Origin: Eubacteriales bacterium | GTDB lineage: Bacteria; Bacillota; Clostridia; Oscillospirales; CAG-382 | DNA: 64,000 nt | Direction of reading: 5' to 3' | Assembly (NCBI GenBank): GCA_045612545.1 | Contig: JAZKZH010000034.1 | Location: 1,556-65,555 of the forward strand | Shown here: positions 3,074 to 62,197 of the stretch, piece after piece | How the letters are laid out: every line of letters starts with the position of its first letter | Position numbering within the stretch: the first letter of the stretch is position 1 | Program-made: the position numbers and the translations under genes | The notes under the pieces: model-generated | Seen by the model: only the letters and a program-made list of their open reading frames with translations | What the model was told of the DNA's origin: nothing | Database searches by the model: none

Positions 3074-3221
3074 ACGCAGACGCGGCCGCGTGCCACCGAC
3101 TTGCCCGCAGGGTTGGTATGCTCAGGATGACGGTTAGAGTGGGTTTTGGCTTATACACAGTTTTCTTTCGCCGACATTCCTAACTTCTCCAAACAACAAC
3201 GTAAAAGCGAGGTTGGATATT

Positions 3222-5841: not shown

Positions 5842-5977
5842 CATAAATGTCAATGCCGTTTTTGATGTCGGCGAGGCAAACCTACGCATAAGCCGGAAGC
5901 CGTCCGCCGACTTGGTCACCTCTGAGCAACCCAGCCCGTTGGGCTGGCTCGCGCGGAATAGAGCCGTTACGGCTTCT
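5842..5977. repeat. module-C copy plus a GTCACCTCTGAGC terminus-like piece and a hairpin
   Basis: 5850-5919 reads ..GCCGTTTTTGATGTCGGCGAGGCAAACCTACGCATAAGCCGGAAGC..GCCGACTTGGTCA, followed by the hairpin CCCAGCCCGTTGGGCTGG. Confidence 0.7.
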
Positions 5978-6292
5978 GTCATCCTGAGCGAACGCGAAGC
6001 GTGAGTCGAAGTTTTGCGGAAGTAGTCGTCGCAACGCGACGAAGGATGGAGCAAAACCAAGGGGTGCTTGCACCCCGAAGGGATCTCCTACGAATTTGAT
6101 CTACCCCTACACGGGTAAAGTTACATTTTTTCGGCAAGAAAAGGTACATCAGACTCTTATTAGATCCTCCCTCATCGCAAAGCGATTCGGGCCTCTCACT
6201 CGGACTCACGTCACTCGTTCGAGTTCGACTCGTCGGGGATTATCTACCGTGTCTCAATCGCAACGTATTACTCCCTCCTCCCTCAGAATGAC
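5978..6292. repeat. nested-palindrome composite element, copy E2 (315 bp, right arm degenerate)
   Basis: GTCATCCTGAG at 5978, core variant at 6080-6167, CTCAGAATGAC at 6282-6292. The left arm is nearly identical to the arms of E4 and E7a. Confidence 0.75.
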
Positions 6293-6348: not shown

Positions 6349-6645
6349 ATGGTCGTTCACGATTATTACGTTTACATACTGACCAACAAGACCAACAGCG
6401 TTTTATACATCGGTGTCACCAACAGCCTGTCCCACAGGCTGGCACAGCATAAAGAAAGCGGGGAAAATCACTTCTCCGCACGGTACAACACCCACAAATT
6501 GGTGTATTTTGAACCCTTTGCAGGGGTGGATAACGCCATCTCCCGAGAAAAGCAGTTAAAACGCTGGACACGGGAAAAGAAAAACCTTTTGATTCAATCC
6601 AAAAACCCAAATTGGGAGGATCTGGGCGGTCAGTTTCCGCTTTGA
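6349..6645 (+). CDS. stand-alone GIY-YIG nuclease family protein, copy 2
   Basis: Same length (98 aa) and motifs as 3222-3518. ATG 6349 lies 56 nt after the CTCAGAATGAC terminus. Confidence 0.85.
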   Translation: MVVHDYYVYILTNKTNSVLYIGVTNSLSHRLAQHKESGENHFSARYNTHKLVYFEPFAGVDNAISREKQLKRWTREKKNLLIQSKNPNWEDLGGQFPL

Positions 6646-7490: not shown

Positions 7491-7566
7491 GGGGCATTAG
7501 CGCAGTTGGGAGCGCACAACACTGGCAGTGTTGGGGTCAGGGGTTCAAGTCCCCTATGCTCCACCA
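7491..7566 (+). tRNA. tRNA-Ala (anticodon GGC), CCA encoded
   Basis: Hand-folded cloverleaf: acceptor stem GGGGCAT/ATGCTCC with the G3:U70 alanine identity pair, anticodon loop CTGGCAG, T-loop GGTTCAAGTCC, 76 nt. Confidence 0.9.
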
Positions 7567-7775: not shown

Positions 7776-7804
7776 ATTGAAATATTTGCAAGTATGTGGT
7801 ATAA
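7776..7804 (+). promoter_or_regulatory. sigma-A-type promoter for the four-helix-bundle/GNAT pair
   Basis: TTGAAA (7776-7781), 17-nt spacer, TATAAT (7799-7804). Confidence 0.6.
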
Positions 7805-7829
7805 TGTTGGTGAAAGCGAGGTGCATATC

Positions 7830-8192
7830 ATGTCCGATTCAAAACTCCGCACACAATCCATGGATTTTGCAGTTCAAATCATAAATCTTGTTAAATCACT
7901 TAAAGAAAAACGGGAATCTATTATTTCTAATCAAATCGGCAGAAGCGGCACCTCTATTGGAGCAAACATTCGTGAAGCACAATATGCTCACGGTAAGGCG
8001 GATTTTATTGCCAAACTTCAAATAGCACTCAAGGAAGCAAATGAAACGGGATATTGGTTAGAGTTATTGTATAAAACAAACTACATTACCGAAAGCGAAT
8101 ACAAAGCGCTTGATTCCGCTTGCACGAGTATTAGAGTAATGCTTATATCTTCCATCAACACCGCTAAGGAGAACAGAAATAGCAATGCTTGA
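7830..8192 (+). CDS. four-helix-bundle protein (23S rRNA intervening-sequence protein / Avd-like family)
   Basis: IGRSGTSIGANIREAQYAHGKADFIAKLQIALKEANETGYWLELL is the family signature. RBS gaggtg lies 7 nt before the ATG. The gene is AT-rich. Confidence 0.8.
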   Translation: MSDSKLRTQSMDFAVQIINLVKSLKEKRESIISNQIGRSGTSIGANIREAQYAHGKADFIAKLQIALKEANETGYWLELLYKTNYITESEYKALDSACTSIRVMLISSINTAKENRNSNA

Positions 8193-14838: not shown

Positions 14839-15246
14839 TTAGATCTTTCCTCTGTTCTGGATCACCTTTGCCAACACGCCGTTGATAAAGGAAACCGCCT
14901 TTTCGCTATCCAGAAGTCTTGCCAGCTCCAAGGCCTCGTTGACCGCGATCTCATCGGGGGTGGGCTGGGGCAGACAGCAAAGCTCTGCGGTGGCAAGGCG
15001 CAAAATGGCAAGGCTCACCTTGTTGATACGCTTGAAGCTCCAATTGTCGGACGCATCGGAAATTCTGGCGTCCACTTCCTCCAGATTGTCGATGACAGTT
15101 TCAAACAACATTCTGGCAAAGCCGCTGGTGGTTTCCCCTCTCTCCTCCACTGCGGTCTGCACGATGGTGTCAACGCTCAGCTCCGGCTGGCAGGCATATT
15201 CATAGAGGTAACAAACTGCTTTTTCTCTCGATTCCCGTCTGGTCAT
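14839..15246 (-). CDS. nusB: transcription antitermination factor NusB
   Basis: MTRRESREKAVCYLYE...ILRLATAEL....P..VAINEALELA.. is the NusB pattern. Confidence 0.85.
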   Translation of the reverse strand: MTRRESREKAVCYLYEYACQPELSVDTIVQTAVEERGETTSGFARMLFETVIDNLEEVDARISDASDNWSFKRINKVSLAILRLATAELCCLPQPTPDEIAVNEALELARLLDSEKAVSFINGVLAKVIQNRGKI

Positions 15247-15449
15247 ACCATAAGAATCCTTTCTGTTTTGTCAATCATAGTTCAGTATAGCATTGTTAAA
15301 GGAAAAAGTCAATGGGGAGAGAATCTACTTTTTTTCTTTTTGGAAAGAAAAAAAGTAGCGCAAAAAAAGAAAACCCGGTGCCAAAAACTGTCGTTTTTGG
15401 GAGGAAGAATATATTTTATAAGCAAAACCAAAAGATGAACGCCGACTTG

Positions 15450-15738
15450 GTCATCTCTGAGCATACCAACCCTGCGGGTTGGCGAGTCGAAATTTTCGTA
15501 GTGAGGCATGGCCGAACGGAGAAAATCAAGGGGTGCTTGCACCCCGAAGGGATCTCCTCAAAGTCTGATCTACCCCTACAAAGGCAAACTTACATCCTTT
15601 GTGATAAAACAGTTCTTTAGCCTCGGAAAAGTATATCAGACTCTCAGTAGATCCCGCCTGCGGCGCTTTTTGATGCTCAGCGCTACGCGCTTCGACTACA
15701 AAAAGTTCGACTCACGCTTCGCGTTCGCTCAGGATGAC
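15450..15738. repeat. nested-palindrome composite element, copy E3 (289 bp)
   Basis: GTCATCTCTGAG at 15450, core at 15549-15655, CTCAGGATGAC ending at 15738. Arm stems are ATTTTC/GAAAAT (left) and CTTTTTG/CAAAAAG (right). Confidence 0.8.
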
Positions 15739-15778
15739 ACGCAGACATAGCCGCATACCGCCGACTTGGTCATCCTGA

Positions 15779-16206
15779 GCGGAGCAGGCGTGGAATAATG
15801 TTGTACCTTAGGTTGCAATGAGAAAAGCCTGCGGAGTCGAAGTTTCCGCAGTTCAGGCGCAGCCGAACAGCGGAAACCAAGGGGTGCTTGCACCCCGAAG
15901 GGATCTCCTCAAAGTCTGATCTACCCCTACAAAGGCAAACTTACATCCTTTGTGATAAAACAGTTCTTTAGCCTCGGAAAGGTATATCAGACTCTCAGTA
16001 GATCCCGCCTGCGGCGGTTTTTGCCGCTCAGCGCCGCATTGCACCAACCCAAGAAAAACAGCTTGCCTGTTTTTCATGTCGGCGGTATACCGTTATCTAT
16101 GCACCATACGCAATGCGCCGACTTCGACTGCAAAAACTTCGACGTGCGCGGAGATGACTGTATTGCACAGCCGTAACGACTACGACCCGCGCGTGCTCAG
16201 GATGAC
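15779..16206. repeat. nested-palindrome composite element, copy E3b (428 bp, right arm carries an internal insertion)
   Basis: GTCATCCTGAG at 15779, core at 15900-16006, CTCAGGATGAC at 16196-16206. Arm stems are GTTTCCG/CGGAAAC and GTTTTTGC/GCAAAAAC. Confidence 0.8.
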
Positions 16207-16220
16207 ACGTAGCCGCTACG

Positions 16221-16370
16221 GTTCCAAAAACGACTTGTCGTTTTTGACGTCTGCGAAACAAAACTACGCATAAACCGAAGGATGACCAAGTCGGCACAAT
16301 GCTTTTGGTTTAAGCGTAGTTTTGCTATGCCGACGTCAAAAACAGCTAATGCTGTTTTTGTTGGATTTTG
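16221..16370. repeat. two module-C copies in head-to-head (inverted) arrangement
   Basis: GTTCCAAAAACGACTTGTCGTTTTTGACGTC...ACTACGCATAA...GACCAAGTCGGC...TTAAGCGTAGTTTTGCTATGCCGACGTCAAAAACAGCTAATGCTGTTTTTG. Confidence 0.7.
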
Positions 16371-16460
16371 TTCGATTCCGCGCGGCCAACCCGCAGGTGT
16401 GCTATGCCCTCCCCCCTCTAAAAAAATCCTTTCTCCACCAAAGAAAATTTCCCATTTCCC

Positions 16461-16489
16461 TTGATTTTTTTATTAATATATTATATAAT
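16461..16489 (+). promoter_or_regulatory. candidate dnaA promoter inside an AT-rich tract
   Basis: TTGATT (16461-16466), 17-nt spacer, TATAAT (16484-16489). The surrounding 16463-16515 is almost pure A/T. Confidence 0.5.
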
Positions 16490-16537
16490 ACTATATCTAA
16501 GCATCTAATTACGCCGTAGGTCGGAAGGAGTGTGTGC

Positions 16538-17863
16538 ATGGACCAGTTTGCAGAGCTGAAAAACATCATATTAGAGGAGCTGGGGAAGCAGTATGCCTCC
16601 ACCATCATCACCCTTTGGTTTGATAAAATGGAGATCACCGAGATCACCGATTCGGAGGTCACACTGTCCTTCCCCGCATCCCGCAAGCTGTTTGTGGAGG
16701 CCAATTACAGTGCCGTCCTCACCGAGACCTTTGCCTCTGTTTTGGGCGTTAAGGTGGACGTAAAGTTTATCTCCCCCGAAGAGGTCAAGGAGCAGGAAGC
16801 CCCCCAGCCGGAGCCCGAGAAGCAGAAGAACGCTTATCAGACCCGTTTCAATGCGGACTACACCTTTGAGACCTTCATCGTGGGCAAATCCAACCAGCTT
16901 GCCCATACCGCCGCCATGGCGGTGGCCAAGAACCCCTTCCATCTGAACAACCCGCTATACCTCTACGGCCCCTCCGGCTTGGGCAAGACCCATTTGCTCT
17001 ACGCCATTATGGCCAAGCTCCGTGAGGATCATCCCGAATATTCCATTCTCTACGTCACCGGCGAGGAATTCACCATCGATATGATCGAGTCCCTTGCCCA
17101 GCACAACCCCGCCGCTCTCCGCGAGAAGTACCGCAGTGTGGACGTGCTGTTGGTGGACGATATCCAGTTCATTTCCGGCAAGATCGGTGTGCAGGAGGAG
17201 TTCTTCCACACCTTCGAGACCTTGTTCCGCCAAAACAAGCAGCTGATCATCGCCTCCGACGTAGCGCCGGAACGGATCGACAACTTAGAAGACCGTCTCC
17301 GCGGCAGATTCTCCATGGGCTTGGTGGCAGACATTCAGCCCCCGGATCTGGAGCTTCGCACCGCTATCTTCCGCAGAAAAGCCCTGGATTTCGGCTTTGA
17401 CCTGGATTTCTCCGTGCTGAACTACCTGGCGGAGAACATCACCCGCAACATCCGTCAGATCGAGGGCGCTATCAAAAAGCTCCGCGCCCACTGCTTCCTG
17501 ACCGGTGATAAATGCACCGTGAAGATCGCAGAGCTGGTTCTGGGCGAGTTCTTAAAGACCAAGGCCTCCGCGGATACCATGTTCGAGAAGGTTCTGGAAT
17601 ACGCCTCCAAGAAGTACATGGTCTCCACCGAGGATATTCTGGGTAACAAGCGTACCGCCAACATCGTATCGGCAAGACACTTCGCCGTCTATATGGTGCG
17701 TAAGACCACTACTTACTCCCAGAAGCAGATCGCTGAGCTGTTTAAGCGCAAGGATCACACCACCATCATCAACTCCATCAACGTCATGGAGCAAAAGGTG
17801 GTCTCCGATCCCATCTTCGCCCGCGAAATGGCCCACACCATCGAGGAAATTTTGCAAGGGTAA
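16538..17863 (+). CDS. dnaA: chromosomal replication initiator protein DnaA
   Basis: Walker A (LYGPSGLGKTHL), LLVDDIQF, sensor regions and the C-terminal DNA-binding HTH (...ARHFAVYMVRK.T.YS...IAELF.RKDHTTI). ATG 16538 lies 7 nt after GGAGG; GTG 16532 is an alternative. Confidence 0.95.
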   Translation: MDQFAELKNIILEELGKQYASTIITLWFDKMEITEITDSEVTLSFPASRKLFVEANYSAVLTETFASVLGVKVDVKFISPEEVKEQEAPQPEPEKQKNAYQTRFNADYTFETFIVGKSNQLAHTAAMAVAKNPFHLNNPLYLYGPSGLGKTHLLYAIMAKLREDHPEYSILYVTGEEFTIDMIESLAQHNPAALREKYRSVDVLLVDDIQFISGKIGVQEEFFHTFETLFRQNKQLIIASDVAPERIDNLEDRLRGRFSMGLVADIQPPDLELRTAIFRRKALDFGFDLDFSVLNYLAENITRNIRQIEGAIKKLRAHCFLTGDKCTVKIAELVLGEFLKTKASADTMFEKVLEYASKKYMVSTEDILGNKRTANIVSARHFAVYMVRKTTTYSQKQIAELFKRKDHTTIINSINVMEQKVVSDPIFAREMAHTIEEILQG

Positions 17864-17942
17864 GTACGAAGAGGGCGCCGCCCTCTTAAACTCCCGCCAA
17901 AGGGGATGATCCCCTTTGGAATCCCGCACCTTAAAAAATATA

Positions 17943-18028
17943 AAAAATTCTCCCGAAAACGACAGTTTTCGGCAATAAAAGTTCTTTGGAGATTCTTAAG
18001 AACCTTTCTCGCAAGAAAGGTTCTTAAG
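17943..18028. repeat. module G copy plus a perfect 15-bp-stem hairpin downstream of dnaA
   Basis: CCCGAAAACGACAGTTTTCGGCAATAAAAGTTCTTTGG, then CTTAAGAACCTTTCT-CGCA-AGAAAGGTTCTTAAG (17995-18028). Confidence 0.75.
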
Positions 18029-18062
18029 TGTACCCCTTAAGCATCCCCCCCTTGTCGAATTC

Positions 18063-18133
18063 TGTGGACAACTTGTGGACAAATGTGCATAACCTATAGG
18101 GTTGTCCACGGGGGGCAAAGGCAGTTATCCACA
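18063..18133. promoter_or_regulatory. oriC DnaA-box cluster (dnaA-dnaN spacer)
   Basis: TGTGGACAA at 18063-18071 and 18074-18082 (= TTGTCCACA on the other strand), TTGTCCACG at 18102-18110, and a perfect TTATCCACA at 18125-18133. An A/T tract lies at 17933-17950 and (CTA)5 at 18191-18207. Confidence 0.8.
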
Positions 18134-18294
18134 GGGAAAATTCAATAACCACGGTACTTTTCCCCACTTTTCCACCAAAAACATCTGCATCTACTACTAC
18201 TACTACTTTCATGTACCTTAAAAGAAAGGGTAGGTGGTAGGGTACGCGTGCGCGCGTAAAAAACGATTACACATCCGAAAGGACGACGTTACTT

Positions 18295-19419
18295 ATGGCA
18301 ATTAAATTCTTATCTGACAAAAAGACACTTTTGAACCTGATCCAGCCCGCCCTGGCGGCGACCTCCGGCAAAAGCACCCTCCCCGCGCTGGAGGGCTTGC
18401 TGTTCCGTCTGGAGGACAACGTTCTGACGGTTTGCGGTTATGACCTGGAAAAGGGTGTGCGCACCAGAGGGGTAGTCATTCCCAAGGAAGAGGGCGCGGT
18501 GATCCTGAACGCTCAGAAGGTTTCCGCCATTATCAAGAATTTCCCGGATTGTGACATTTCCTTTGAGGCAGACGATAAGAACATGGTGCATATCACCGGT
18601 GGTATGAGTGACTTCACTGTCCACGGTCTTACCGCGGAGGCGTTCCCCAATATGCCCACCCTGGGCGGCGACAACGCCTTCTGCATCAGCCAGAGCTTGA
18701 TGAAGGAGATCATCGCCTCCACCTGCTTTGCGGTTTCTCAGGTGGACGCCCGTCCCATCCTGACAGGTGAGTTTTTCCATATCGAAAACCGTTCCATCAC
18801 CGCGGTGGCCTTGGATAACTATCGTCTGGCGCTCCGTGAGGAGAAGGAATGCATTTTTGACAACGAAAACGACTTCTCCTTTGTAGTACCCGGAAAATCG
18901 CTCTTAGAGCTTTCCAGACTGCTCAGAGATACCGACGATATGCTCCGCGTGGAGTTTACCGCCAAGTACGTTATCTTCAAGCTGGATGATATCGTGCTGT
19001 TCTCCCGCTTGCTGGAAGGAGAATTTTTGGATTACAAGCGTGCTATTCCCGCTCAGAACAAGATCTTTGTGACCTTGGACAGAAGAGCCTTTGAGGATTC
19101 CGTTTCCCGTGCTTCCCTTTTGGTGGATGAGAAGCTGAAGACCCCCCTGCGCTGCCGCTTTGAGGGGGATATCCTCCACGTTACCTGCTCTACCCAGTAC
19201 GGTAAGGTAAACGATCACCTGCGTATCGAAAAGCTGGGCGACGATCTGGAGATCGGATTTAACAACAGATATTTGTTGGATGCGCTCCGTGCCTGCAAGG
19301 ATGATACCCTGCAGATCTCTCTTTCCACGGCTTTTATGTCCATGGTGATCCAGCCCAAGAATCCCTCCGAGTCCGGCACCTATCTGTATCTGGTGCTGCC
19401 CGTGAAGCTGAAGGATTAA
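18295..19419 (+). CDS. dnaN: DNA polymerase III beta sliding clamp
   Basis: Length, position after dnaA, and pattern (MAIKFLSDKKTLLNLIQPA....STLPALEGLLF; ..NNRYLLDAL) match DnaN. Confidence 0.95.
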   Translation: MAIKFLSDKKTLLNLIQPALAATSGKSTLPALEGLLFRLEDNVLTVCGYDLEKGVRTRGVVIPKEEGAVILNAQKVSAIIKNFPDCDISFEADDKNMVHITGGMSDFTVHGLTAEAFPNMPTLGGDNAFCISQSLMKEIIASTCFAVSQVDARPILTGEFFHIENRSITAVALDNYRLALREEKECIFDNENDFSFVVPGKSLLELSRLLRDTDDMLRVEFTAKYVIFKLDDIVLFSRLLEGEFLDYKRAIPAQNKIFVTLDRRAFEDSVSRASLLVDEKLKTPLRCRFEGDILHVTCSTQYGKVNDHLRIEKLGDDLEIGFNNRYLLDALRACKDDTLQISLSTAFMSMVIQPKNPSESGTYLYLVLPVKLKD

Positions 19420-20662: not shown

Positions 20663-20680
20663 GGAGAGTTCAACGCTTTC

Positions 20681-21445
20681 CGGGAGGTCGAGGCGCCCTC
20701 CCCTACAAACCCGAGCCTTGAAAAACAAAAAAATAAACCTTTTCTCCCGCATAGAAAAAAGTTCATTGCGTGAAAACACGGTTAGATTTTCATTTATACA
20801 TCCTGCGGTTTCGTAGGGGACGGCGCCCTCGACGTCCCGCAAAAATAAAAAGGTGGTCATTTTCTTGACTCTTCCAAAAAGAAAACCAATTCGTTTGAAG
20901 GAATTCAGCTACAGCAACGGCGGATCGTATTTTCTTACACTTTGTGTTCAGGACAGACAAAAGATTTTATCGAAGATAGAGCCGCTTTTTGAATGTAAGT
21001 TTGTTAATGAACTGCCGAGAGACGTTTATCCCTTTGATGGTGATGACAGATACCTACGGGTCATCCCTACGGAGATAGGAAAAATTACGGAGAAATATAT
21101 TTTATCCTCAGAAAAAATACAAGGTGTGATCATTGACGATTACGTGATTATGCCGGATCATGTTCATATTGTTGTTTCTATAACGGATGAGTCGGTTTTA
21201 AAACAAGAGGTAAAAAACGAAAAAATTCCAAAGATCGTTTCCGCATTGAAGCGTTTGATTCAAAAAGAGGTTGGCAGACCGATTTTTCAAAGAGCGTATT
21301 ACGACCACGTGATCCGTAATCACGAGGATTATGAAAATATTTTGGCCTATATTCATCAAAATCCGGCAAGATGGTATTTTCGTCGGTTGAATGGAAAAAT
21401 GAAAGTTGATTGAGATCGGGCGGGAGGTCGAGGAGCCCTCCACCT
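20681..21445 (+). mobile_element. RAYT locus: REP doublet + IS200-like Y1 transposase gene + REP
   Basis: REPs at 20681-20709, 20809-20840 (inverted, ends 12 nt before the ORF) and 21421-21445 (starts 8 nt after the stop). The gene body is AT-rich and the REPs are GC-rich. Confidence 0.75.
20853..21413 (+). CDS. REP-associated tyrosine transposase (IS200-like, HUH/Y1 family)
   Basis: KPIRLKEFSYSNGGSYFLTLCV, HUH motif MPDHVHIVV, and the catalytic-Tyr helix FQRAYYDHVIRNHEDYENILAYIHQNPARW. Confidence 0.8.
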   Translation: MVIFLTLPKRKPIRLKEFSYSNGGSYFLTLCVQDRQKILSKIEPLFECKFVNELPRDVYPFDGDDRYLRVIPTEIGKITEKYILSSEKIQGVIIDDYVIMPDHVHIVVSITDESVLKQEVKNEKIPKIVSALKRLIQKEVGRPIFQRAYYDHVIRNHEDYENILAYIHQNPARWYFRRLNGKMKVD

Positions 21446-27466: not shown

Positions 27467-27655
27467 TGATTGGTTTGGATGCGAGGATGAATTGTAGTAA
27501 AATCAAAATCTAATTTTGGAGGATACTACAATGAAAAAGAACTTTGAATCCCTTTATGAAACCCTCGGAGAAACTTACCGCGAGGAAAATGGACACCTTA
27601 TAGCACAAGTCTGATGTACCCCTGCGTGGGGGAAGTTACATCTTTCTTCCCAACC

Positions 27656-27690: not shown

Positions 27691-29656
27691 TTATGAAACC
27701 GTCTCCACGGTAAGCTTGACGGCGTTTTGGGAGGTAATGGGGTATTCTGCGGGGATCTCGATGAAGAACATCCACTGCCGTATATCGCAAGTCCCCTCTT
27801 CTCCCGGCCCGGGAACTCTGCGGTCCAGAATCACTTCCACAGTGCCGTCGGTGTGGATCACAACCTCCTTCAGCTTTAAGCTGTTGGAGCCGCTGGTTTC
27901 CATTCGATACACTGCAATGAGGGCGTTCTTTTCAAAAAAGTCTTCATCGTAAACATCCTCGATCTCAATGGGCAGTTCGTTGCCGTAGACCCCGTAATTG
28001 CCGCTTTTGGCGTACTTGTTAAAGAAGGACTGCTTCGCCCAAGGGGTGGCCAGAACGGTGACGTCCGCAGGGGGATTATCGTAATCCAAAAACACCTCCG
28101 CATTTTGATTCTCCGGGTTCAGAACCACCTTTTCGGTAGGCAAATAGGGGATATACCCGCCTTGGGTGCTCTCCTTGATCACGCTGTAACGGAGCTCTAC
28201 CCGCTTGATCTGCTCCCCGTAGGCTTTATCGATGATGTAGAAGTACAATTTTCCTGCCACAGGACCGTCGTACTGATAGCTGGCGCGGTAGCAAACGTCG
28301 AAATAAGCCGTGCCGTCGGAATATATATCGATTCCGCCGCTTCCCACGATCAAGCCCTGATCGGTGCCTTCGCCGTAGCCCCAGATCAAAGCCTTTTTCT
28401 CAAAGAACTCATCGTCGAACATATCCGCATAATCCGCCGTACGGCGAGCATACTCCTCCATCACGGCGATCAGCGACTGTCGATTGGTAACCACCGAAGC
28501 AAGAGGGCCGTCGCCCTCGTACAAAGGCAGATTCACCATCCCGTATCCTTGGCTAAAGGGTACATGGACAGGCACCTCCACCGAGGGAGGCGGCGGGCAG
28601 TCAACCTTTGTATAGAAGTGGCTGTAGCTTGCGGCAGGGTGATCTGCGGGGATCTCAAACAGGAAGACTTTTCCCCCTGCCGTGGGGTTGTCGGGATTCG
28701 GGTTGGGGCAGCTGAACAGCGCATTGACCTCTTTTTCGTTACTGATCAATCCCTCGAAGGTGACCTCTGCGGAGGCGTCCCACAGGTAGACGTACACGCC
28801 GATGAAGCAAGTTTTTTCAAAATCCACCTTCACAAAGGGATCCCAAACGGTATCCGGCAAATAGCCGTAGGGGCAATAGAGACCCATAAAGGAATTCATT
28901 TTTTTCTGGGAGTTCAGCAGTCTTGCCTCGCTTCCTTCAAAAGCCCCTGCCTCCTGAGAGTAGCAATAAACCGTGTATCCCTTCAGCTCCACGGGCGTTT
29001 CCGCTGTGACGGGAACGTCCCGAGAGATCTCCGCCAAAAGCACCCAGCCTGCCATGTCATCAGTTCCGAAGCCTGTGGAATACTCGTTAAAAGTCCATTC
29101 CAAAACGCCGTTTTTCAGCCAAACCGATTCCGTTCCCAGCCGATGCGACCCGCTTCCCACGGGGGTATAGGCGGCAAGGAGTCTGTGGTTCTCAAAATAC
29201 GCCGCGTCGTAGCGATCCTCCAGCTTAACTTCGCCGCCGTACAGGGCGAAAGAAGCGTACTTTTCAAAAAACGCCTGCTTTTCTTCCACGGTGCTGAGTA
29301 CCACCGCAAATCGGTCGTCTTCGTCATAGCGTACCTGCGCCGCTTGGGTGGGCGCATCGATCCAAAGGTCTGTTTCTTCCGGCTCTTCCGGTTCTTTGGG
29401 TTCTTCGGAGGTCTCACCCGGTTCTTCCGGCTCTGCGGGGGTCTCACCGGGCTCTTCGGAGGGTTCTTCGGAGGTGTCACCGGGCTCTTCGGAGGGTTCT
29501 GTGGGTTCTTCGGAAGAAGCCTCCTCCGAGGGCGCAGAGGAAGAATTCACGGCCTCCTCCTTGGATTTCCCCCTTGGATTCCTCCACGGGAAGGGCGGGC
29601 TGACAGGCGGTGAACAGCACCACAGCACACAAAAGCAAAACGAAGATCTTTTTCAT
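27691..29656 (-). pseudogene. multi-domain secreted lipoprotein gene, apparently frameshifted at a C5/G5 run (or phase-variable)
   Basis: A lipoprotein signal MKKIFVLLLCAVVLFTAC starts at 29656 but is in the -1 frame relative to the 645-codon ORF 27691-29628. The two frames would join if the C5 run at 29569-29573 were C4. Confidence 0.6.
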
Positions 29657-29707: not shown

Positions 29708-30586
29708 CTACTCGGCCTCCTCCACGGTAAGCTTTACGGGATTTTCCGAGGTGATGGGATGCTCCACGGGAATCTCGATGAAGAACATCCACTGCCGAAT
29801 ATCGCAAGTCCCCTCTTCTCCCGGCCCGGGAACTCTGCGGTCCAGAATCACTTCCACAGTGCCGTCGGTGTGGATCACAACCTCCTTCAGCTTTAAGCTG
29901 TTGGAGCCGCTGTTTTCCTCCCGAAACACCGCCAGGAGAGAATTCTTCTCAAAGAACGCCTTGTCGTACCGCTCCTCGATTTCAAGAGGCCGAGGGTTGC
30001 CGTTTTGGTCATAATGGGGGCTTTGGGCGTACTTTGCAAAATAACTTTTCTTTGCCTGCAGAGAAGTCAGCACTGTCACGTCGGCGGGAGGCTCTCCCTT
30101 TTCAAATACCTTCGCATTTTGATTCTCCGGGTTCAGAACCACCTTTTCGGCGGGTACGTAGGGCGCGGGTGCTGCGCAGGGAGGGTCAGGCTCCTCCCCG
30201 GATTCATCTGTTTCCGGCCTTTCCCACTCCTCGGAATAGTCCGGCTCCTCGGAATAGACCGGCTCCTCGGAATAGTCCGGCTCCTCGGAATAGACCGGCT
30301 CTTCGGAATAGTCCGACTCCTCCTGTTCGGGCTGCCCTCCCGGCAGGGACACGGGCGGTTTGGAATCGCCTTGCAGGCTCTCCTCATCCCCCGCGATTTC
30401 CGATGAAGGCGGCAGGGAGGGTGACTCCGCAGGAGATGCCAACTGCCACACCCCGAAGCCCAAGGGCAGACAAATACACAAGAGCAGACACGCCGCCAAG
30501 GCGTGGTGGATATGCCGTTTGCGGGCGTTTCTTTTTGCCTCGCCGCGGCGTTTGATCTCACGGCTGATGGCAATATAATCTTTCAT
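29708..30586 (-). CDS. single-pass membrane protein, probable anti-sigma factor of the adjacent ECF sigma
   Basis: Starts 8 nt after the sigma gene stop. Short basic N-terminus, TM segment ALAACLLLCICLPLGFGVW, (YSEEP[VD])n linker. The C-terminal domain is paralogous to the lipoprotein domains. Confidence 0.45.
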   Translation of the reverse strand: MKDYIAISREIKRRGEAKRNARKRHIHHALAACLLLCICLPLGFGVWQLASPAESPSLPPSSEIAGDEESLQGDSKPPVSLPGGQPEQEESDYSEEPVYSEEPDYSEEPVYSEEPDYSEEWERPETDESGEEPDPPCAAPAPYVPAEKVVLNPENQNAKVFEKGEPPADVTVLTSLQAKKSYFAKYAQSPHYDQNGNPRPLEIEERYDKAFFEKNSLLAVFREENSGSNSLKLKEVVIHTDGTVEVILDRRVPGPGEEGTCDIRQWMFFIEIPVEHPITSENPVKLTVEEAE

Positions 30587-30593
30587 CAACTTG

Positions 30594-31154
30594 TCATTCC
30601 TTTCCCACCGCAAAAGAGGTGTCGTCACATTCCAGAATGGCGCGAAGCTGTTTCTTCCCCCGGTAAAGCAGGTTGTCCACCTGTTTTTTGGAAACCTTCA
30701 TCACACGGGCGATGTCTTCATAGGAAAGATCCTCAAAATACATAAGATACAAGGCCTCCGCCATATCAGAGGGCAGCTTTGCCATGGCGGCGTGGAGGGC
30801 TTTTTTCCGTTCGTTCACCAAAAGCTGTTCCTCCGGGGAGGGTTCTGCGCTTTCCAAGGGAAGCTCCTCGGGAGTCACGTCCGCTATGCGTCTGTGCTTC
30901 TTTAAGTAGTTCAGGGCGCGGGATTTTCCCACCATGAACAAATAGGTCTTTAAGGAAACACGGAAATCGTATCGTTTTTTGTAGGCCACCAGATCGGAAA
31001 ACACGTCCATGGCGATGTCCTCCGCGGCGTGGGGATCCTTCACGTAGCGGTAAAGAAACTGTACCAACGGGTCGTAAAGGGATATTACGATCTCGTCAAA
31101 GGCTTCTTCCTCACCATCCAGGTAGCGGCGGTAGCTACTTGCGCCGTTGTCCAT
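30594..31154 (-). CDS. RNA polymerase sigma-70 family (ECF-type) sigma factor
   Basis: Region 2 (FDEIVISLYDPLVQFLYRYVKDPHAAEDIAMDVF) and region 4 (ALYLMYFEDLSYEDIARVMKVSKKQVDNLLYRGKKQL). ATG 31154 is preceded by aggaagg. Confidence 0.8.
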   Translation of the reverse strand: MDNGASSYRRYLDGEEEAFDEIVISLYDPLVQFLYRYVKDPHAAEDIAMDVFSDLVAYKKRYDFRVSLKTYLFMVGKSRALNYLKKHRRIADVTPEELPLESAEPSPEEQLLVNERKKALHAAMAKLPSDMAEALYLMYFEDLSYEDIARVMKVSKKQVDNLLYRGKKQLRAILECDDTSFAVGKE

Positions 31155-31358
31155 GGTGTGATACCTTCCTTTCTGCTTGTTATACAATCGAAACGGGAAA
31201 ATTCCTCAGCGTTTTTTGATTTTTTTTGAAAAAAGGACCCTCGTGGGGATAAGGTCAGCCCCTACGGGGCGGATGAGGTTCCTATTGACAAAAACAGCAA
31301 GCTGTTTTTGGAACCTTGGGATCGAGGTAAGAGGCGGGGACGTTTCCAACGTCAGCGT

Positions 31359-31701
31359 GTCATTCTGAGGGAGCCCGAAGGGCGAGTCGAAGTTTTGCGG
31401 AGAAAACAAGGTGCATACAGCGGCATAAAAGCAGTTTGCTTTTTGATCTGCATCGGCCGCGATGCACCGTTCGGAGCAAAACCGCCGCAGGCGGGATCTA
31501 CTGAGAGTCTGATGTTCCTTACCAAAGGAAAAGAACTGTTTTATCACAAAGGATGTAAGTTTGCCTTTGTAGGGGTAGATCAAATTCGTAGGAGATCCCT
31601 TCGGGGTGCAAGCACCCCTTGGTTTTGCTCCATCCTTCGTCGCGTTGCTACGACTACTTCCGCAAAACTTCGACTCACGCTTCGCGTTCGCTCAGGATGA
31701 C
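31359..31701. repeat. nested-palindrome composite element, copy E4 (343 bp, core inverted)
   Basis: GTCATTCTGAG at 31359, GAGTCGAAGTTTTGCGGAG, GGAGCAAAACC, core at 31493-31599, GGTTTTGCTCC, TCCGCAAAACTTCGAC, CTCAGGATGAC ending at 31701. Confidence 0.85.
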
Positions 31702-31761
31702 AGAAGCCGTGGCAGTTCGATTCCGCGCTTGCCAACCCGCAGGGTTGGTATGCTCAGAGAT

Positions 31762-31910
31762 GACCAAGTCGGCGTATGGCTGTATACCGTTCATCACTGC
31801 ATACCGCCGACGTCAAAAACGACAAGTCGTTTTTGGAACTGCGGTGCGAAGACCAAGTCGGCGTATGGCTGCATACCACGCTTGACTGTGTACCGCCGAC
31901 GTCCCAAAAA
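31762..31910. repeat. two module-C copies (second truncated)
   Basis: GACCAAGTCGGCGTATGGCTG.ATACC...CCGCCGACGTCAAAAACGACAAGTCGTTTTTGG, then GACCAAGTCGGCGTATGGCTGCATACC...CCGCCGACGTCCC. Confidence 0.7.
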
Positions 31911-35888: not shown

Positions 35889-36187
35889 GTCATCCTGAGC
35901 AAGCCGCGAATGCGGCGCGTCGAAGTTTTGCGGAGAAAGCAAGGTGCTTTAGCACCGTTCGGAGCAAAACCGAAGCCTGCGATAGCGGGCTGAGGGATCT
36001 CCTACGAGTTTGATCTACCCCTACATGGATAAACTTACATCCTTTTTTGATGGAACAGTTCTTTACCCCCCCCAAAAAGGAACATCAGACTCTCAGTAGA
36101 TCCCGCCTGCGGCGCTTTTTGATGCTCAGCGCTACGCGCTTCGACTACAAAAAGTTCGACTCACGCTTCGCGTTCGCTCAGGATGAC
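35889..36187. repeat. nested-palindrome composite element, copy E5 (299 bp)
   Basis: GTCATCCTGAG at 35889, core at 35994-36104, right arm CTTTTTG/CAAAAAG identical to the right arm of E3, CTCAGGATGAC ending at 36187. Confidence 0.8.
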
Positions 36188-40776: not shown

Positions 40777-40921
40777 GGGGGTGTCCTGCCTTTTTCGTTT
40801 CGTTTTCTTTAGTGTAGCATAAAAGAACGGGATTTGCAAGAAAAAAATGAAGGTTTTGGAAGGAAGGTATGTTTTATGCCGGCTTTTGCTAAGGCGTATA
40901 CCAAACCCTCATCCCAGCCTG

Positions 40922-41100
40922 CCATCTCTGAGCATACATTTCAAAACGCAAGGCTTGGAAGGATGTAAGTTTACCCGTGAAGGGGTAGATCGGACTCATA
41001 GGAGACCCCTCAACCTGCAAGCAGGTCTCGGTTTCCTTCGCTCAGCTTCGCTTCGACTACGGAAACTTCGACTCGCGCGAGCGCGCTCGCTCAGGGTGAC
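40922..41100. repeat. truncated composite element, copy E6
   Basis: CATCTCTGAGC at 40922, half core (GGATGTAAGTTTACCCGTGAAGGGGTAGATCGGACTCATAGGAGACCCC), right arm GTTTCC/GGAAAC, CTCAGGGTGAC ending at 41100. Confidence 0.65.
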
Positions 41101-41153
41101 AATCGGGGTGGGTGCGGCAATTTCCTCAGTGCATTCACGTTAAACCCTCGGTC

Positions 41154-41472
41154 ACATCTCCATACTCACGTCTGCTTGCACTACACAGGTGTCCGGGGGT
41201 AACCGTAACGGACTCCCGGGTACTAACGCCCGGAAATTTGCACCATACCATGAAAAACGACATGAATCAAAACTGATCCATGTCGCTTTTGTAGGTCATG
41301 TCGTTTTTGGGGCGTGAGGAACCGATGGTAACATCTCCATACTCACGTCTGCTTGCACTACACTCAAAAAAACGACATGAATTGTTTCCAATCCATGTCG
41401 CTTTCTGTGCCATGTCGTTTTTTAGGTGTCCGGGGGTAACCGTAACGGACAGCTGAGTACTAATGCCCGGAC
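41154..41472. repeat. shuffled duplication X-Y-Z / X-Z-Y downstream of tpiA
   Basis: X at 41154-41186 = 41331-41363. Y at 41187-41235 resembles 41424-41472. Z at 41253-41308 resembles 41366-41423 (a long A5/T5-flanked hairpin AAAAACGACATGA...TCATGTCGTTTTT). Confidence 0.75.
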
Positions 41473-48832: not shown

Positions 48833-49108
48833 TTACGGTTGAAGTTGGTTTTTCCATTTTAACAAGTCCCGCAGGGCCACAAGTCCGTCTCGCTTGCCGA
48901 TGTTGTAAACGCGGCGGATATTTTCCGGGTTCTTTTCCGGCCTGCCGATGCTCAGAGCTTCCCGCGGACGGATGACAAAGGCGTGTCCCTTTTTCTCCTC
49001 CTCACCGATCAAGGCCATGGTTTGGTTGTACCGCTTGTGACAGCCGGCTCGGAGACGGAGAGAAAGCCCGTGTCTCCGCCTGCGGCGCAAAATTTTAACA
49101 ACGGCCAC
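48833..49108 (-). pseudogene. orphan duplicate of the 3' end of the patatin gene fused to a 50-nt duplicate of the 3' end of the ARH lipoprotein gene
   Basis: 48895-49041 matches 49766-49912 (roughly 90 %). 49039-49088 matches 46871-46920 (44/50). The ORF has no N-terminal catalytic domain. Confidence 0.7.
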
Positions 49109-49713: not shown

Positions 49714-50555
49714 GTGACTTCTCTCCATTTCAACATTGTCTCCAACGCTTCTTCCCCATCGGCTCTGCCGATGTTGTAAACGCGGCGGATGTTTTCCGGG
49801 TTCTTTTCCAGCCTGCCGATGATCAGAGCTTCCCGTGGACGGATGACAAAGGCGTTTCCCTTTTTCTCCTCCTCCCCGATCAAGGCCATGGTTTGGTTGT
49901 ACCGCTTGTGACGGTCGGCAAGGGCTTTTGCAAGGCACGGATATTTGCGGTAGAAAAGCTTTGCCAAGAGGGGATGCTCTTTTTTTCGCACATAGCTTGC
50001 GGGATGGGTGAGGATCAGCACGTTGCGGGCGTATCCCATACCCATAAAGGCCTCCAAGGGGATGCTGTCGGTACAGCCCCCGTCCAAATAATGTTCCCCG
50101 CTGATCTCCACGGGCTTGGAAAGATATGGTAAGGATGCGGAGGCGCGGAGCATATCGATCTGTTCCTTCATATCCGTGATGCGCAAGTATTCCGCTTCCC
50201 CGGTGTTTACGTTGGTTGCGGTGACGTAAAAAGGGGTCTCATTTGCCAAAAAGGCGGCGTGGTCGTATATATCCAGCTTATCCGGCAGCTCGTGGTAGCA
50301 AAAATCCACTCCCACCACGTTCCCCGTGGTGAAAAAGCTTTTCATGCCCATAAATCGTGGGTCTTTGCAGTATTTTTCGTAGTAGCGGATGCTTCTCCCC
50401 TTTTGCCCCGAAAGATAGGAACAGCCGTGGATCGCCCCTGCGGACACGCCGATCACCCCGTCAAAGGTCACCCCGTGTTCCATAAACACGTCCAATACCC
50501 CGGCGGTGTAAATGCCCCGCATTCCCCCGCCTTCCAAAATCAAGCCTGTTTTCAT
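49710..50555 (-). CDS. patatin-like phospholipase
   Basis: ILEGGGMRGIYTAGVLD (oxyanion GGG.RG) and GVSAGAIHG (G.S.G nucleophile). Confidence 0.85.
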   Translation of the reverse strand: MKTGLILEGGGMRGIYTAGVLDVFMEHGVTFDGVIGVSAGAIHGCSYLSGQKGRSIRYYEKYCKDPRFMGMKSFFTTGNVVGVDFCYHELPDKLDIYDHAAFLANETPFYVTATNVNTGEAEYLRITDMKEQIDMLRASASLPYLSKPVEISGEHYLDGGCTDSIPLEAFMGMGYARNVLILTHPASYVRKKEHPLLAKLFYRKYPCLAKALADRHKRYNQTMALIGEEEKKGNAFVIRPREALIIGRLEKNPENIRRVYNIGRADGEEALETMLKWREVT

Positions 50556-51322: not shown

Positions 51323-51676
51323 GTCATCCTTGAGCTCAGGTTTGCAAGCAAACCGTCGAAGTTTTGCGGAAGTAGTCGTCGCAACGCGACGAGGGATGGA
51401 GCAAAACCGCCGCAGGCGGGATCTCATAAGAGTCTGATGTTCCTTTCTGTAACGAGAGAACTGTTTTATCACAAAGGATGTAAGTTTACTTTTCAAGGGG
51501 TAGATCAGACTTTGAGGAGACCCCTTGCGGTTTTGCTTTTTAGAAATTGCTGTGGAAGACAGAACCACTTCCAAGATTTCGGGGCAATTTCAAAAAGCAA
51601 AACTTCGACTCCGCAGGCTTTTCTCATTGCAACCTAAGGTACAACATTATTCCGCGCCTGCTTCGCTCAGGGTGAC
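51323..51676. repeat. nested-palindrome composite element, copy E7a (354 bp, core inverted; mirror image of E1)
   Basis: GTCATCCTTGAG at 51323, core at 51418-51524, the same TTGCAACCTAAGGTACAACATTATTCC insert as E1/E3b, CTCAGGGTGAC ending at 51676. Confidence 0.8.
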
Positions 51677-51755
51677 CAAGTCGGCGTTCAGCCTTTGGCT
51701 TATGCGTAGGTTTGCCTCGCCGACGTCAAAAACAGCTAAGGCTGTTTTTGTTGGG
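51674..51755. repeat. module-C copy
   Basis: GACCAAGTCGGCGTTCAGCCTTTGGCTTATGCGTAGGTTTGCCTCGCCGACGTCAAAAACAGCTAAGGCTGTTTTTG. Confidence 0.7.
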
Positions 51756-51878: not shown

Positions 51879-51955
51879 CCAAGTCGGCGCAGGGCTTTTG
51901 TCTTATGCGTAGTTTTGTTTCGCCGACGTCAAAAACGGCAAGCCGTTTTTGGAAC
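51879..51955. repeat. module-C copy
   Basis: CCAAGTCGGCGCAGGGCTTTTGTCTTATGCGTAGTTTTGTTTCGCCGACGTCAAAAACGGCAAGCCGTTTTTGG. Confidence 0.7.
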
Positions 51956-51969: not shown

Positions 51970-52286
51970 GTCATCCTGAGCACGCGCGGGTCGTAGTAGA
52001 TGTGGCTACGCATTACAGTCATCTCCGCGCACGTCGAAGTTTTGCGTAGGTGAGCGTAGCGAACGAAGCAAAACCGCCGCAGGGGGGATCTACTGAGAGT
52101 CTGATATACCTTTTTGGGGGGTAAAGAACTGTTTTATCACAAAAAATGTAAGTTTACCTATGTAGGGGTAGATCAAATTCGTAGGAGATCCCTTCGGGGT
52201 GCAAGCACCCCTTGATTTTCTCCGTTCGGCCATGCCTCGACTACGAAAATTTCGACGGCTTGCTTGCAAGCCTACTCAGAGATGAC
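51970..52286. repeat. nested-palindrome composite element, copy E7b (317 bp, core inverted)
   Basis: GTCATCCTGAG at 51970, core at 52085-52192, right arm ATTTTC/GAAAAT (same variant as the left arm of E3), CTCAGAGATGAC ending at 52286. Confidence 0.8.
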
Positions 52287-54921: not shown

Positions 54922-55236
54922 AATTCGTTTTTGTTGAGTGTGGATTTTTTGGGCCGCCGTGGACGTCGGCCCCTACGGACCCGAAATGGGGACGGCAGAA
55001 AGTACGGCATTTTCTCCCGCAAGCATTACGGTGAGAAAACGATTTGCGCCCATCTGATTACGTGGGAACACGGTACGATTTTGTGGACGATCTATGCGTA
55101 TTCGTAGGGGACGACGTCCACGGCGTCCCGCTTGAAAATCTAAGTATACTTAGGCTTTTTGTGAAAAATGCTCAAAATCCTCTGCCCGGCGGATCTTTAA
55201 TGCGGCAAGCAATTGTTTCGCGCGGACTCGTTTCAC

Positions 55237-55315
55237 GTGAAACATTTTCACGTGAAACGTTTTCACAGTGAAACATTTTCACAGTGAAACGTTTTCACAG
55301 TGAAACATTTTCTGC
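55237..55315. repeat. array 1: five tandem copies of GTGAAACRTTTTCAC(A)
   Basis: Copies start at 55237, 55252, 55268, 55284 and 55300. Position 8 alternates A,G,A,G,A. The array is preceded by the perfect palindrome GTTTCACGTGAAAC. Confidence 0.9.
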
Positions 55316-55676
55316 GTGATATAAACTCGGCGACGATCCTTGGACCACCCGTTTTTATTGCTCTTACTTCTTCGTTAAGTGGATTTTACGGGCCGCCGTG
55401 GGCGTCGGCCCCTACGGACCCGAAATGGGATTGTGGGAACCACGGCATTTTCTCCCGCAAGCATTACGGCGAGAAAACCGATTTGCGCCCATCTGATTAC
55501 GTGGGAACACGGTGCGATTTTGTGGACGCTATATGCGTATTCGTAGGGGACGACGTCCACGGCGGCCCGCTTGAAAATCTAAGTATACTTAAGCTTTTTT
55601 GTGAAAAATGCTCAAAATCCTCTGCCCCGCGGATCTTTAATGCGGCAAGCAATTGTTTCGCGCGGACTTGTTTCAC

Positions 55677-55752
55677 GTGAAACATTTTCACGTGAAACAT
55701 TTTCACAGTGAAACATTTTCACAGTGAAACATTTTCTTGTGAAACATTTTCG
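55677..55752. repeat. array 2: five tandem copies of GTGAAACATTTTCAC(A)
   Basis: Copies start at 55677, 55692, 55708, 55724 and 55739. The array is preceded by GTTTCACGTGAAAC. Confidence 0.9.
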
Positions 55753-62120: not shown

Positions 62121-62197
62121 GTTCCGAAAACAGCTTTGCTGTTTTTGATGTCGGCGAAACGATGCTACGCATGACATAAAGCCCTGCGCCGACTTAA
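62121..62197. repeat. module-C copy whose end overlaps a stop codon
   Basis: GTTCCGAAAACAGCTTTGCTGTTTTTGATGTCGGCGAAACGATGCTACGCATGACATAAAGCCCTGCGCCGACTTAATC. The TTA (TAA on the minus strand) at 62194-62196 is the stop of the next gene. Confidence 0.65.

Follow-up and report, generated by a model that had tools for sequence, protein, structure and literature searches.

What is the elaborate palindromic repeat that recurs between the genes of a 64,000-nucleotide (nt) stretch of contig JAZKZH010000034.1, from an uncultured gut Eubacteriales bacterium of the Clostridia, and what might sustain it? We analyzed this whole stretch (the window) together with related genomes and more distant loci, and conclude that the repeat family is probably a lineage-specific, divergent partner of small GIY-YIG nucleases of the Ssn type, composed of non-autonomous units that would act as single-stranded DNA (ssDNA) hairpins. 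The Ssn family was described in 2025 as single-domain GIY-YIG proteins of ~94 amino acids (aa; cd10448) whose genes are flanked by hairpin repeats, called NTS in Neisseria (CGTCATTCCCGCGMAVGCGGGAATCYRG) and SRM in general (PMC11893778, Chenal et al., Nat Commun). SsnA binds its hairpin as ssDNA only and cuts just upstream of it on one strand, with no action on double-stranded DNA or RNA, and it modulates natural transformation (PMC11893778). Ssn nucleases are so far known mostly from Gram-negative bacteria, with short hairpin partners, and Clostridia, Bacillota, and Firmicutes go unmentioned in that study (PMC11893778).

A modular repeat in nine intergenic copies

A preliminary description of the window, made by reading its sequence, had reported a modular, nested-palindromic, high-copy intergenic repeat present nine times with a shared order of blocks, and our analysis supports it. 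A 29-nt core signature (AGGGGTAGATCNNANTNNNAGGAGANCCC) has exactly nine matches in the window (2876-, 6080-, 15549-, 15900-, 31571+, 35994-, 40981+, 51496+, and 52164+, the sign giving the strand) and none in 100 dinucleotide-preserving shuffles of it; the nine copies align with identical block order, and repeat finding retrieves them in both orientations. With boundaries set at the terminal inverted repeats GTCAYYCTGAG and CTCAGRRTGAC, units measure 180 to 438 bp in the window, and up to 541 bp when related genomes are included, and they total ~2.9 kb, or ~4.5% of the window. All nine lie between Pfam-supported genes, the open reading frames (ORFs) that overlap them being mechanical only. The copies in the window occupy tandem and divergent intergenic regions, and those in related genomes are found in convergent ones too. 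Some units in the window are clustered or in tandem (E3a/E3b and E7/E8). The copies, and three short units or end motifs close to them, are as follows.

2726-3073, minus strand: E1, complete, 348 bp; core 2874-2986; terminal repeats GTCACCCTGAG / CTCAGGATGAC; full-length match to the core hidden Markov model (HMM), 123 bits
5978-6292, minus strand: E2, complete, 315 bp; core 6078-6172, with a short internal deletion
15450-15738, minus strand: E3a, 289 bp, in the nusB-dnaA intergenic region; core 15547-15659
15769-16206, minus strand: E3b, 438 bp, 30 nt from E3a; core 15898-16010
31359-31701, plus strand: E4, 343 bp; core 31489-31601
35889-36187, minus strand: E5, 299 bp; core 35993-36108
~40921-41100, plus strand: E6, right half only; half core 40959-41010, right arm, and end motif
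51323-51676, plus strand: E7, 354 bp; variant left end GTCATCCTTGAG; core 51414-51526
51970-52286, plus strand: E8, 317 bp; core 52081-52194
3121-3131, minus strand: additional solitary end motif (CTCAGGATGAC) from a short hairpin unit; GIY-YIG gene 1 starts 90 nt downstream
5915-5977, plus strand: short single unit abutting E2; end motif GTCACCTCTGAG, then a hairpin
31702-31766, minus strand: short single unit directly abutting E4; its reverse complement is GTCATCTCTGAGCATACCAACCCTGCGGGTTGGCAAGCGCGGAATCGAAC

The terminal repeats bear out the coordinates first given for eight of the copies, among them E6, which begins at ~40921 and is, as had been said, truncated; the fourth (E3b) starts at 15769 and not at 15779. 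Every block quoted earlier for E4 is present as written at 31359-31701. The flanks of the units are themselves other recurring repeat modules, for example ending at the unit boundary in ACGTCAGCGT or GGCTACGT on one side and beginning there with CAAGTCGGCG or AAACGGACACAGCGGC on the other, and the palindrome therefore often extends past the unit ends. We also note a weak partial match (21 bits) to the centre of the repeat at 27606-27647 (AGTCTGATGTACCCCTGCGTGGGGGAAGTTACATC), which may be a tenth, degenerate remnant.

Fold and anatomy of the unit

Folded with RNA parameters, the plus strand of E4 reaches a minimum free energy of -169.9 kcal/mol (z -12.0) and the minus strand -154.5 kcal/mol (z -10.3); as ssDNA, with DNA parameters, E4 reaches -87.1 kcal/mol (z -10.8). 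The repeat had been proposed to fold either as a rod or as a multi-armed cruciform. The predicted shape of E4 is a long imperfect rod with side hairpins, in which the nested inverted repeats pair, and the rod is favored over the cruciform because the two halves folded singly as ssDNA are much weaker (-30.3 and -17.3 kcal/mol, versus -87.1 for the whole). The side hairpins do differ between copies and stay hairpins nonetheless: the first slot after the terminal repeat holds 75 distinct sequences among 123 parsed ends, and nearly all of the 40 commonest, which are those that were folded, form a hairpin. Compensatory variants are seen in this slot, such as ACGC/GCGT versus ACAC/GTGT and GCGCGG/CCGCGC versus GTGCGG/CCGCAC. 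The commonest hairpins carry GAA triloops on the GTCAT strand, for example GCGAAGC, which belongs to a very stable type of DNA mini-hairpin.

Of 128 unit ends, 123 have the motif GTCAYYCTGAG with a hairpin after it, and the extended end GTCAYYCTGAG-hairpin-GTCGAAG occurs at 15 sites in the window. Relatives show a canonical short form, GTC-ATCCT-GAG[hairpin]GTCGA-AGGAT-CTC. The left end of the units in the window retains GTCATYCTGAG-[hairpin]-GTCGAAG and is followed by an arm module consisting of TTTTGCGG, a variable hairpin, GGAGCAAAACC, and GCCGCAGGCGG, after which GGGATCT opens the centre; the right half of the unit mirrors the left. The pairing partner of the terminal GTCATCCTGAG is the distant CTCAGGATGAC, not a nearby AGGAT. 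To judge from this arrangement, the best reading of each unit is an inverted doublet of putative, interrupted Ssn-type motifs around an asymmetric centre of roughly 100 nt (113 nt).

Several candidates for the centre and arms were tried and rejected. The centre contains TTTATCACA, which resembles a DnaA box, but the CACA positions differ among copies, and the real DnaA-box cluster is at 18063-18133. Comparison with GIY-YIG genes and their untranslated regions, of which the centre might have been a remnant, yields only two marginal matches of 18 to 20 nt (E 0.34) and a recurrent terminal ~17 nt (E >0.3). Readings as an IHF site or a promoter also fail, with no promoter-like site predicted, and a flip/flop inversion of arm variants is discounted because left and right variants are not mutual reverse complements.

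Unit ends are associated with small GIY-YIG genes

Two genes in the window adjoin E1 and E2 and code for predicted nucleases.

3222-3518, plus strand: GIY-YIG gene 1, predicted Ssn-like single-domain nuclease, 98 aa; ATG at 3222; 80% aa identity to gene 2
6349-6645, plus strand: GIY-YIG gene 2, predicted Ssn-like single-domain nuclease, 98 aa; Pfam PF01541, E 4.4e-17, residues 22-94 of a 114-aa ORF

Gene 2 lies 56 nt, and gene 1 90 nt, beyond a CTCAGRATGAC end, and the same geometry of gene and end is seen in related metagenome-assembled genomes (MAGs). Both genes thus abut a unit end, as ssn genes are flanked by SRM or NTS hairpins, and the unit ends have the oriented 5' (C)GTCAT flank followed by a hairpin that typifies those motifs. 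Both proteins have the size and architecture of Ssn proteins, a single GIY-YIG domain in 98 aa with no added DNA-binding domain, and the invariant residues in the alignment of their homologues include GIY, YIG, and Arg, His, Glu, and Asn positions that we take to be catalytic. Homologues are abundant (>7,900 at E<=1e-10), and NCBIfam has no specific model for the two proteins. Their sole relative in the PDB is a UPF0213 protein (1zg2) at only E 5e-4, so they are not close members of the UPF0213 stand-alone GIY-YIG family. Gene 1 is inserted between scpA and scpB, which are normally adjacent, with its stop codon overlapping the scpB start, and gene 1, E1, and other repeat modules together occupy ~1 kb between them. 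The block of E2 and gene 2 is missing at the orthologous site of one related locus (L054) and present in other related genomes.

The association extends to distant taxa. GIY-YIG homologues at 57 to 64% identity in other Clostridia/Ruminococcaceae sit beside palindromes of 90 to 112 bp bounded by GTCATYCTGAG and CTCAGGATGAC. Soils, sediments, waters, and guts supplied 80 metagenomic loci with homologues at 48 to 62% identity. Fifteen of them contain 54 exact 11-mer ends between them, where ~0.45 would be expected, and almost all are within 400 nt of the gene. Within 250 nt of the gene the shorter GTCATYC has 7.7 times its density elsewhere and occurs at least once in 49 of the 80 loci, and 21 have an insertion sequence (IS)-like layout with the motif upstream and its inverse downstream of the gene. 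The extended end stands beside GIY-YIG homologues at 13 loci from at least five lineages (compare GTCATCCTGAGCGAGGCCGAAGGCCGAGTCGAAGGATC at L127 with GTCATTCTGAGGGAGCCCGAAGGGCGAGTCGAAGTTTTGC in E4). Canonical NTS-like hairpins matching the published SRM pattern are present at 7 of the 80 loci, including one (L168) with CGTCATTCCCGCGCAGGCGGGAATCCGC on both sides of the gene, and the window proteins therefore belong with proteins whose genes show the published hairpin association.

The preliminary description did not recognize the sequences of the repeat. Its ends, GTCAT(Y)C, a hairpin, and then GTCGAAG, have the architecture of the NTS and SRM motifs of Ssn GIY-YIG genes (PMC11893778), and the claim of novelty is narrowed to that extent; it holds in that no copy matches the SRM pattern. 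A literature search for GIY-YIG proteins with miniature inverted-repeat transposable elements (MITEs), REP, or YhbQ returned nothing, and one for the 11-mer end returned unrelated papers only. We note also a locus in another Clostridia lineage (L097-L099, JAGANJ01, locus positions 1747-2276) in which two Ssn-like GIY-YIG genes stand in tandem with overlapping stop and start codons, preceded by three direct repeats of ~70 nt and followed by several GTCATTCTGAG units.

Distribution and exchange of modules among related genomes

Searching a set of species-representative genomes with the AGGGGTAGATCNNANTNNNAGGAGANCCC-type centre signature retrieved 90 stretches, all from gut MAGs labelled Eubacteriales, Clostridia, or Oscillospiraceae (human-type samples, sheep, yak, and water buffalo). 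They are 75 to 92% identical to the window in coding DNA and largely syntenic with it, and the composite repeat is present in at least six gut Clostridia/Oscillospiraceae MAGs. An HMM scan, which had been suggested as a check, gives 138 non-overlapping centre matches in 657 kb of element-rich sequence, of which 87 are full length, and 64 complete units of 283 to 541 bp could be delimited. Metagenome assemblies are in practice broken by the repeats, many related contigs ending within a unit. Neither the core pattern nor E4 has a match in viral contigs, plasmids, or phages.

Orthologous intergenic sites in other genomes usually hold a unit as well, with other modules in its slots, inverted, or reduced to half. 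The site orthologous to E5 in L052, for example, has the right half only, fused to another module. Units with only a right half share a sharp inner boundary at AAGGATGTAAG in four contexts, and a second type of centre shares the left arm only. The composite described at first as a set unit is therefore one common arrangement among interchangeable modules, which include half units and the second centre type, and the repeats form a mosaic system with frequent exchange between copies.

Strand asymmetry and the question of an RNA

The two strands of the palindrome are not equivalent. The core-sense strand, which is the plus strand of E4, folds better in 57 of 64 units, by a mean of -9.9 kcal/mol (Wilcoxon p 1e-9), and self-alignment of the palindromes shows 567 G.T versus 348 A.C pairs (273 versus 177 in contexts found in no more than two units), although these counts are not independent because the copies are related to each other. 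The better-folding strand is mostly antisense to neighboring genes (36 versus 15, and 15 versus 5 in tandem contexts). With the replication origin of the window placed by the DnaA-box cluster at 18063-18133 and the GC-skew minimum, the core-sense strand is on the inferred lagging-strand template in eight of the nine copies. The asymmetry fits selection on a single-stranded form, RNA or ssDNA alike.

A structured non-coding RNA would explain part of this pattern. Such an RNA, made from the whole unit or from its 113-nt centre, could be a small RNA in many copies or could work in cis to terminate transcription, insulate, or stabilize mRNA, and the DNA palindrome would be secondary. Folding is very strong on both strands (z -12 and -10), the steady advantage of one strand comes with an excess of G.U-compatible pairs, and the centre is well conserved across species and bracketed by outward-facing terminator-like hairpins (GGGGTGCAAGCACCCC followed by TTGGTTTT, and CCGCCTGCGGCGG followed by TTTTGC on the other strand). 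The variation in the core stem is all one-sided, between GC and GU, which speaks for an RNA, but G.T is the most tolerated mismatch in DNA hairpins also. Covariation, the main support that an RNA would be expected to have, is lacking from the core stems, with none of 23 consensus pairs compensatory among 76 distinct copies (RNAalifold); the RNA form considered in the preliminary description is left without it, and a clear strand asymmetry remains. Rfam returns only a tRNA for the whole window at gathering thresholds, and even at E<=10 its best matches to E4 (E 3.3 to 4.3) are far below threshold; the repeat is absent from that database. No promoter-like site is predicted inside E4, both strands fold, and orientation relative to neighboring genes is only 70:30, with the better-folding strand mostly antisense. 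DNA repeats typically show such a copy number, together with terminal inverted repeats, half units, and module swapping, and we think an RNA identity unlikely.

Transposons and passive palindromes

The repeat resembles a MITE in its terminal inverted repeats of at least 11 nt, its size of 180 to 540 bp, its high copy number and intergenic location, and its presence or absence in different species, as though it were an internally deleted derivative of a DDE-type IS moved in trans by the transposase of another genomic locus and its proximity to GIY-YIG genes were incidental. We consider this quite improbable. The flanks of 64 units show no target-site duplication and are recurring repeat modules, and no partner transposase is apparent: the 657 kb contain no unit longer than 700 bp and none with an ORF, pairing of end motifs up to 4 kb apart gives a single long pair (1,103 bp) that is two units, and all-against-all blastp of ORFs near units finds only clusters of orthologues and no multi-copy transposase. 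Conservation extends to the centre and is not confined to the ends, and the linkage of the end motif with GIY-YIG genes recurs in unrelated lineages far above chance; no genes are bounded by such ends except GIY-YIG genes, in other lineages. It is conceivable, and we give it some limited weight, that the composites are non-autonomous transposons of a class not yet proven, in which a GIY-YIG ssDNA nuclease of ~95 aa, together with host repair or replication, would excise and insert hairpin-ended ssDNA, and the centre would be functional cargo, required by host or element, such as a protein-binding site or a small RNA. If so, these would be the first MITE-like derivatives of Ssn systems, and carriers of an undescribed functional module.

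The window also encodes a Y1 transposase, an enzyme of a type that acts on ssDNA hairpins, and the units might be mobilized by it in the manner of REP/REPIN elements.

20853-21413, plus strand: IS200-like Y1 (RAYT-type) transposase gene between recF and gyrB; PF01797, E 6.9e-7; HVH motif and YYDH stretch

The core of the repeat contains GTAGGGG, which also starts the REP-like repeat GTAGGGGACG, but this GTAG is in the apical region and not 5' of a hairpin, and the composite ends begin with GTCAT and not GTAG. The Y1 gene is flanked by REP-like hairpins of its own (20680-20705, 20812-20840, and 21421-21445; GGGAGGTCGAGGNGCCCTCC and GTAGGGGACGGCGCCCTCGACGTCCC) that are distinct from the composite ends, it is absent from all 90 element-bearing related loci, and the orthologous recF-gyrB site in L077 has a half unit in its place; its involvement is very hard to credit. 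A passive origin dispenses with any dedicated enzyme, the units being old structural palindromes (terminators or protein-binding sites) inherited vertically and homogenized by gene conversion. In its favor, most orthologous sites in species with 75 to 92% gene identity already carry an element, module shuffling indicates recombination, and terminator-like hairpins are frequent in and around units. It leaves unexplained the linkage of end motif and GIY-YIG gene across phyla and the presence or absence of the E2 and gene 2 block, as well as the near identity of units across species where neutral intergenic DNA should have diverged, and we regard it as improbable.

A partnership with the GIY-YIG nucleases is the reading that we prefer, and several observations weigh against it. 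A GIY-YIG gene stands beside only two of the nine copies, and the identification of the products of 3222-3518 and 6349-6645 as predicted Ssn-type nucleases depends on homologues that have canonical motifs. The published SRM pattern, HGTCWYN(0-2)YYVSBRHN(0-5)WNVSBRGN(0-2)RNCYNB, has no match in the window, where 0.58 are expected, and matches in only 2 of the 90 element loci; SRM units are 20 to 50 nt with one hairpin, and those here are composites of 180 to 541 bp, with short single units alongside. In the composites AGGATC, the 3' half of the canonical short hairpin, is displaced by ~100 nt by inserted modules, and recognition may therefore differ. The model leaves the conserved 113-nt centre unexplained, and GIY-YIG gene regions contain nothing similar to it. 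Since the loci were chosen by the core signature, its invariance across genomes is in part built in, although the rest of the centre is conserved at 90% or more in a way not attributable to that choice. Lastly, the orientation bias in other genomes is weak by a GC-skew proxy (34 versus 20), and the asymmetry counts share the relatedness noted above.

Genomic context and other repeats in the window

The window is a replication-origin region with nusB, dnaA (16532-17863), dnaN, recF, gyrB, gyrA, scpA/scpB, tpiA, and pgk. The cumulative GC skew has its minimum near 17 kb, and the DnaA-box cluster at 18063-18133, in the dnaA-dnaN spacer (17863-18295), comprises a perfect box and three that each deviate at one position. 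Upstream of dnaA, 1.3 kb (15246-16532) is filled with two units and other repeats and lacks a DnaA box, and related MAGs have units upstream of this gene too.

Other repeat families share these intergenic regions. One module consists of a terminator-like hairpin, AAAAACGGCnnnGCCGTTTTT, followed by GACGTCGGCG, ACGCATAAGCC, and GCCGACTTG at intervals, and usually abuts the GTCAYC end of a unit. It occurs at the following sites.

2560-2638
2649-2727
5838-5916
16220-16346
51676-51736
51879-51939
62121-62172

At 16220-16360 two AAAAACGGCnnnGCCGTTTTT-type modules face each other around a mere remnant of a unit end (AGGATGAC). A REP-like family, GTAGGGGACGNCG...CGNCGTCCC, in which GTAG precedes a hairpin, is found at 20697, 20813, 24306, 24403, 54124, 55104, and 55543 and numbers 26 in the 657 kb. 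Its enzyme partner is presumably the Y1 transposase, whose gene sits in a region of low GC (45%) and high GC skew. Upstream of tpiA, at 41100-41470, GTAACATCTCCATACTCACGTCTGCTTGCACTACAC and GGTGTCCGGGGGTAACCGTAACGGAC occur twice each, along with two AAAAACGACATGA...TCATGTCGTTTTT hairpins.

Larger duplications are also present. Segments of 260 to 300 bp at 55036-55335 and 55475-55743, in a long spacer between a PHP-domain gene and a TRAM/tRNA-methyltransferase gene, are 95 to 97% identical and 440 bp apart, and each ends in an array of the 16-nt palindrome GTGAAACRTTTTCACA (4 to 5 and 2 to 3 units), possibly an operator or iteron array. A 154-nt direct repeat (48895-49048 and 49766-49919; 95% identical and 871 bp apart) surrounds the region of a HAD-family hydrolase ORF. 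The ORFs at 27691-29628 and 29708-30628, side by side on the minus strand, are paralogues that match nothing in Pfam; they share a 300-nt stretch of 83% identity, contain in-frame tandem repeats of 18 and 21 nt (30204-30340 and 29399-29515), and adjoin an ECF-type sigma factor gene (30594-31187). Just after tRNA-Ala (7491-7566) is a gene of the 23S rRNA-intervening-sequence protein family (7794-8192, plus strand; PF05635), paralogues of which recur in three element-bearing loci.

A proposed mechanism and its significance

In the mechanism that we propose, the inverted Ssn-related end motifs of each unit would bracket interchangeable palindromic arms and the conserved asymmetric 113-nt centre. 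Most likely a unit is active as ssDNA, exposed when DNA is replicated at forks, taken up, or transferred, and in this state it would snap into the long rod with side hairpins. The neighboring GIY-YIG nuclease would recognize GTCAT and its hairpin at a unit end and nick that strand just beyond the end; as the two ends are inverted, each strand would offer a single cleavable end. Being non-autonomous, the copies would depend on the nuclease to persist and spread, and on frequent exchange by recombination or gene conversion among themselves, from which the mosaic of modules would also result. The analysis shows the repeat with its fold, its occurrence across related genomes, the association of motif and gene in distant taxa, the exchange of modules, and the strand asymmetry; cutting of these ends by the GIY-YIG proteins, a consequent drive to spread or limit on recombination, and any role of the 113-nt centre are what we infer. 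Cutting might spread the repeats, as with RAYT and REPIN, or restrict incoming or exposed ssDNA, as proposed for Neisseria, and we favor a partnership of the REPIN/RAYT kind.

Surveys of Ssn systems probably undercount them, because Clostridia genes tied to this divergent motif are missed by the published pattern. The large nested modular palindromes described here offer a natural test of whether Ssn-type nucleases spread repeats, as RAYTs do, or only police ssDNA, and new ssDNA-cutting specificities might be found among the paired sequences of enzyme and site.

Comparison with known repeat systems

The preliminary description likened the modular build to BOX and Correia elements, a fair analogy. 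Correia, ERIC, BOX, and RUP elements are likewise short, intergenic, and bounded by terminal inverted repeats, with modular or insertion variants and possible effects on transcription. The units described here have no sequence similarity to them and lack target-site duplications, such as the TA that Correia elements duplicate, and they are far more elaborate, with at least five nested palindromic layers and variable hairpin slots. The NIMEs of N. meningitidis, as known from its genome papers, are RS units of 50 to 150 bp flanked by 20-bp dRS3 inverted repeats. They too are mosaics of interchangeable intergenic modules in clustered or tandem units bounded by a nuclease-associated hairpin motif, dRS3 now being known as part of NTS (PMC11893778), although their sequences are unrelated to ours save for the GTCAT flank, and here the palindrome is deep and nested through the whole unit, around a conserved centre.

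REP, BIME, and REPIN-RAYT systems share with this family hairpins that act, or here probably act, as ssDNA, inverted doublets forming long hairpins, mosaic arrays, one or a few repeat-flanked enzyme genes against hundreds of non-autonomous copies, and long persistence at orthologous sites. The enzyme is a Y1 HUH tyrosine transposase in those systems and would be a GIY-YIG protein here, the end is GTAG there and GTCAT here, and a separate RAYT-plus-REP system coexists in the window. The comparison has a precedent, in that NTS-ssnA-NTS was likened to an insertion sequence and the system compared with RAYT/REP/BIME by its authors (PMC11893778).

The closest likeness is to Ssn/SRM itself: a small single-domain GIY-YIG gene directly adjoins repeats that are intergenic and high in copy number, a conserved and oriented 5' GTCAT flank precedes a hairpin of variable sequence, and homologues of the window proteins are flanked by canonical NTS-like hairpins in a motif-gene-inverted-motif layout. 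An SRM is a hairpin of 20 to 50 nt, in contrast to the 180 to 540 bp of these units, whose end motifs are split by arm modules around the 113-nt centre, and the host is a Gram-positive-type gut Clostridia lineage in which the system is predicted from its sequence. The family lies outside both the Rfam families and the published SRM pattern, and it is best filed as an elaborate, lineage-specific type of Ssn/SRM repeat-nuclease system.

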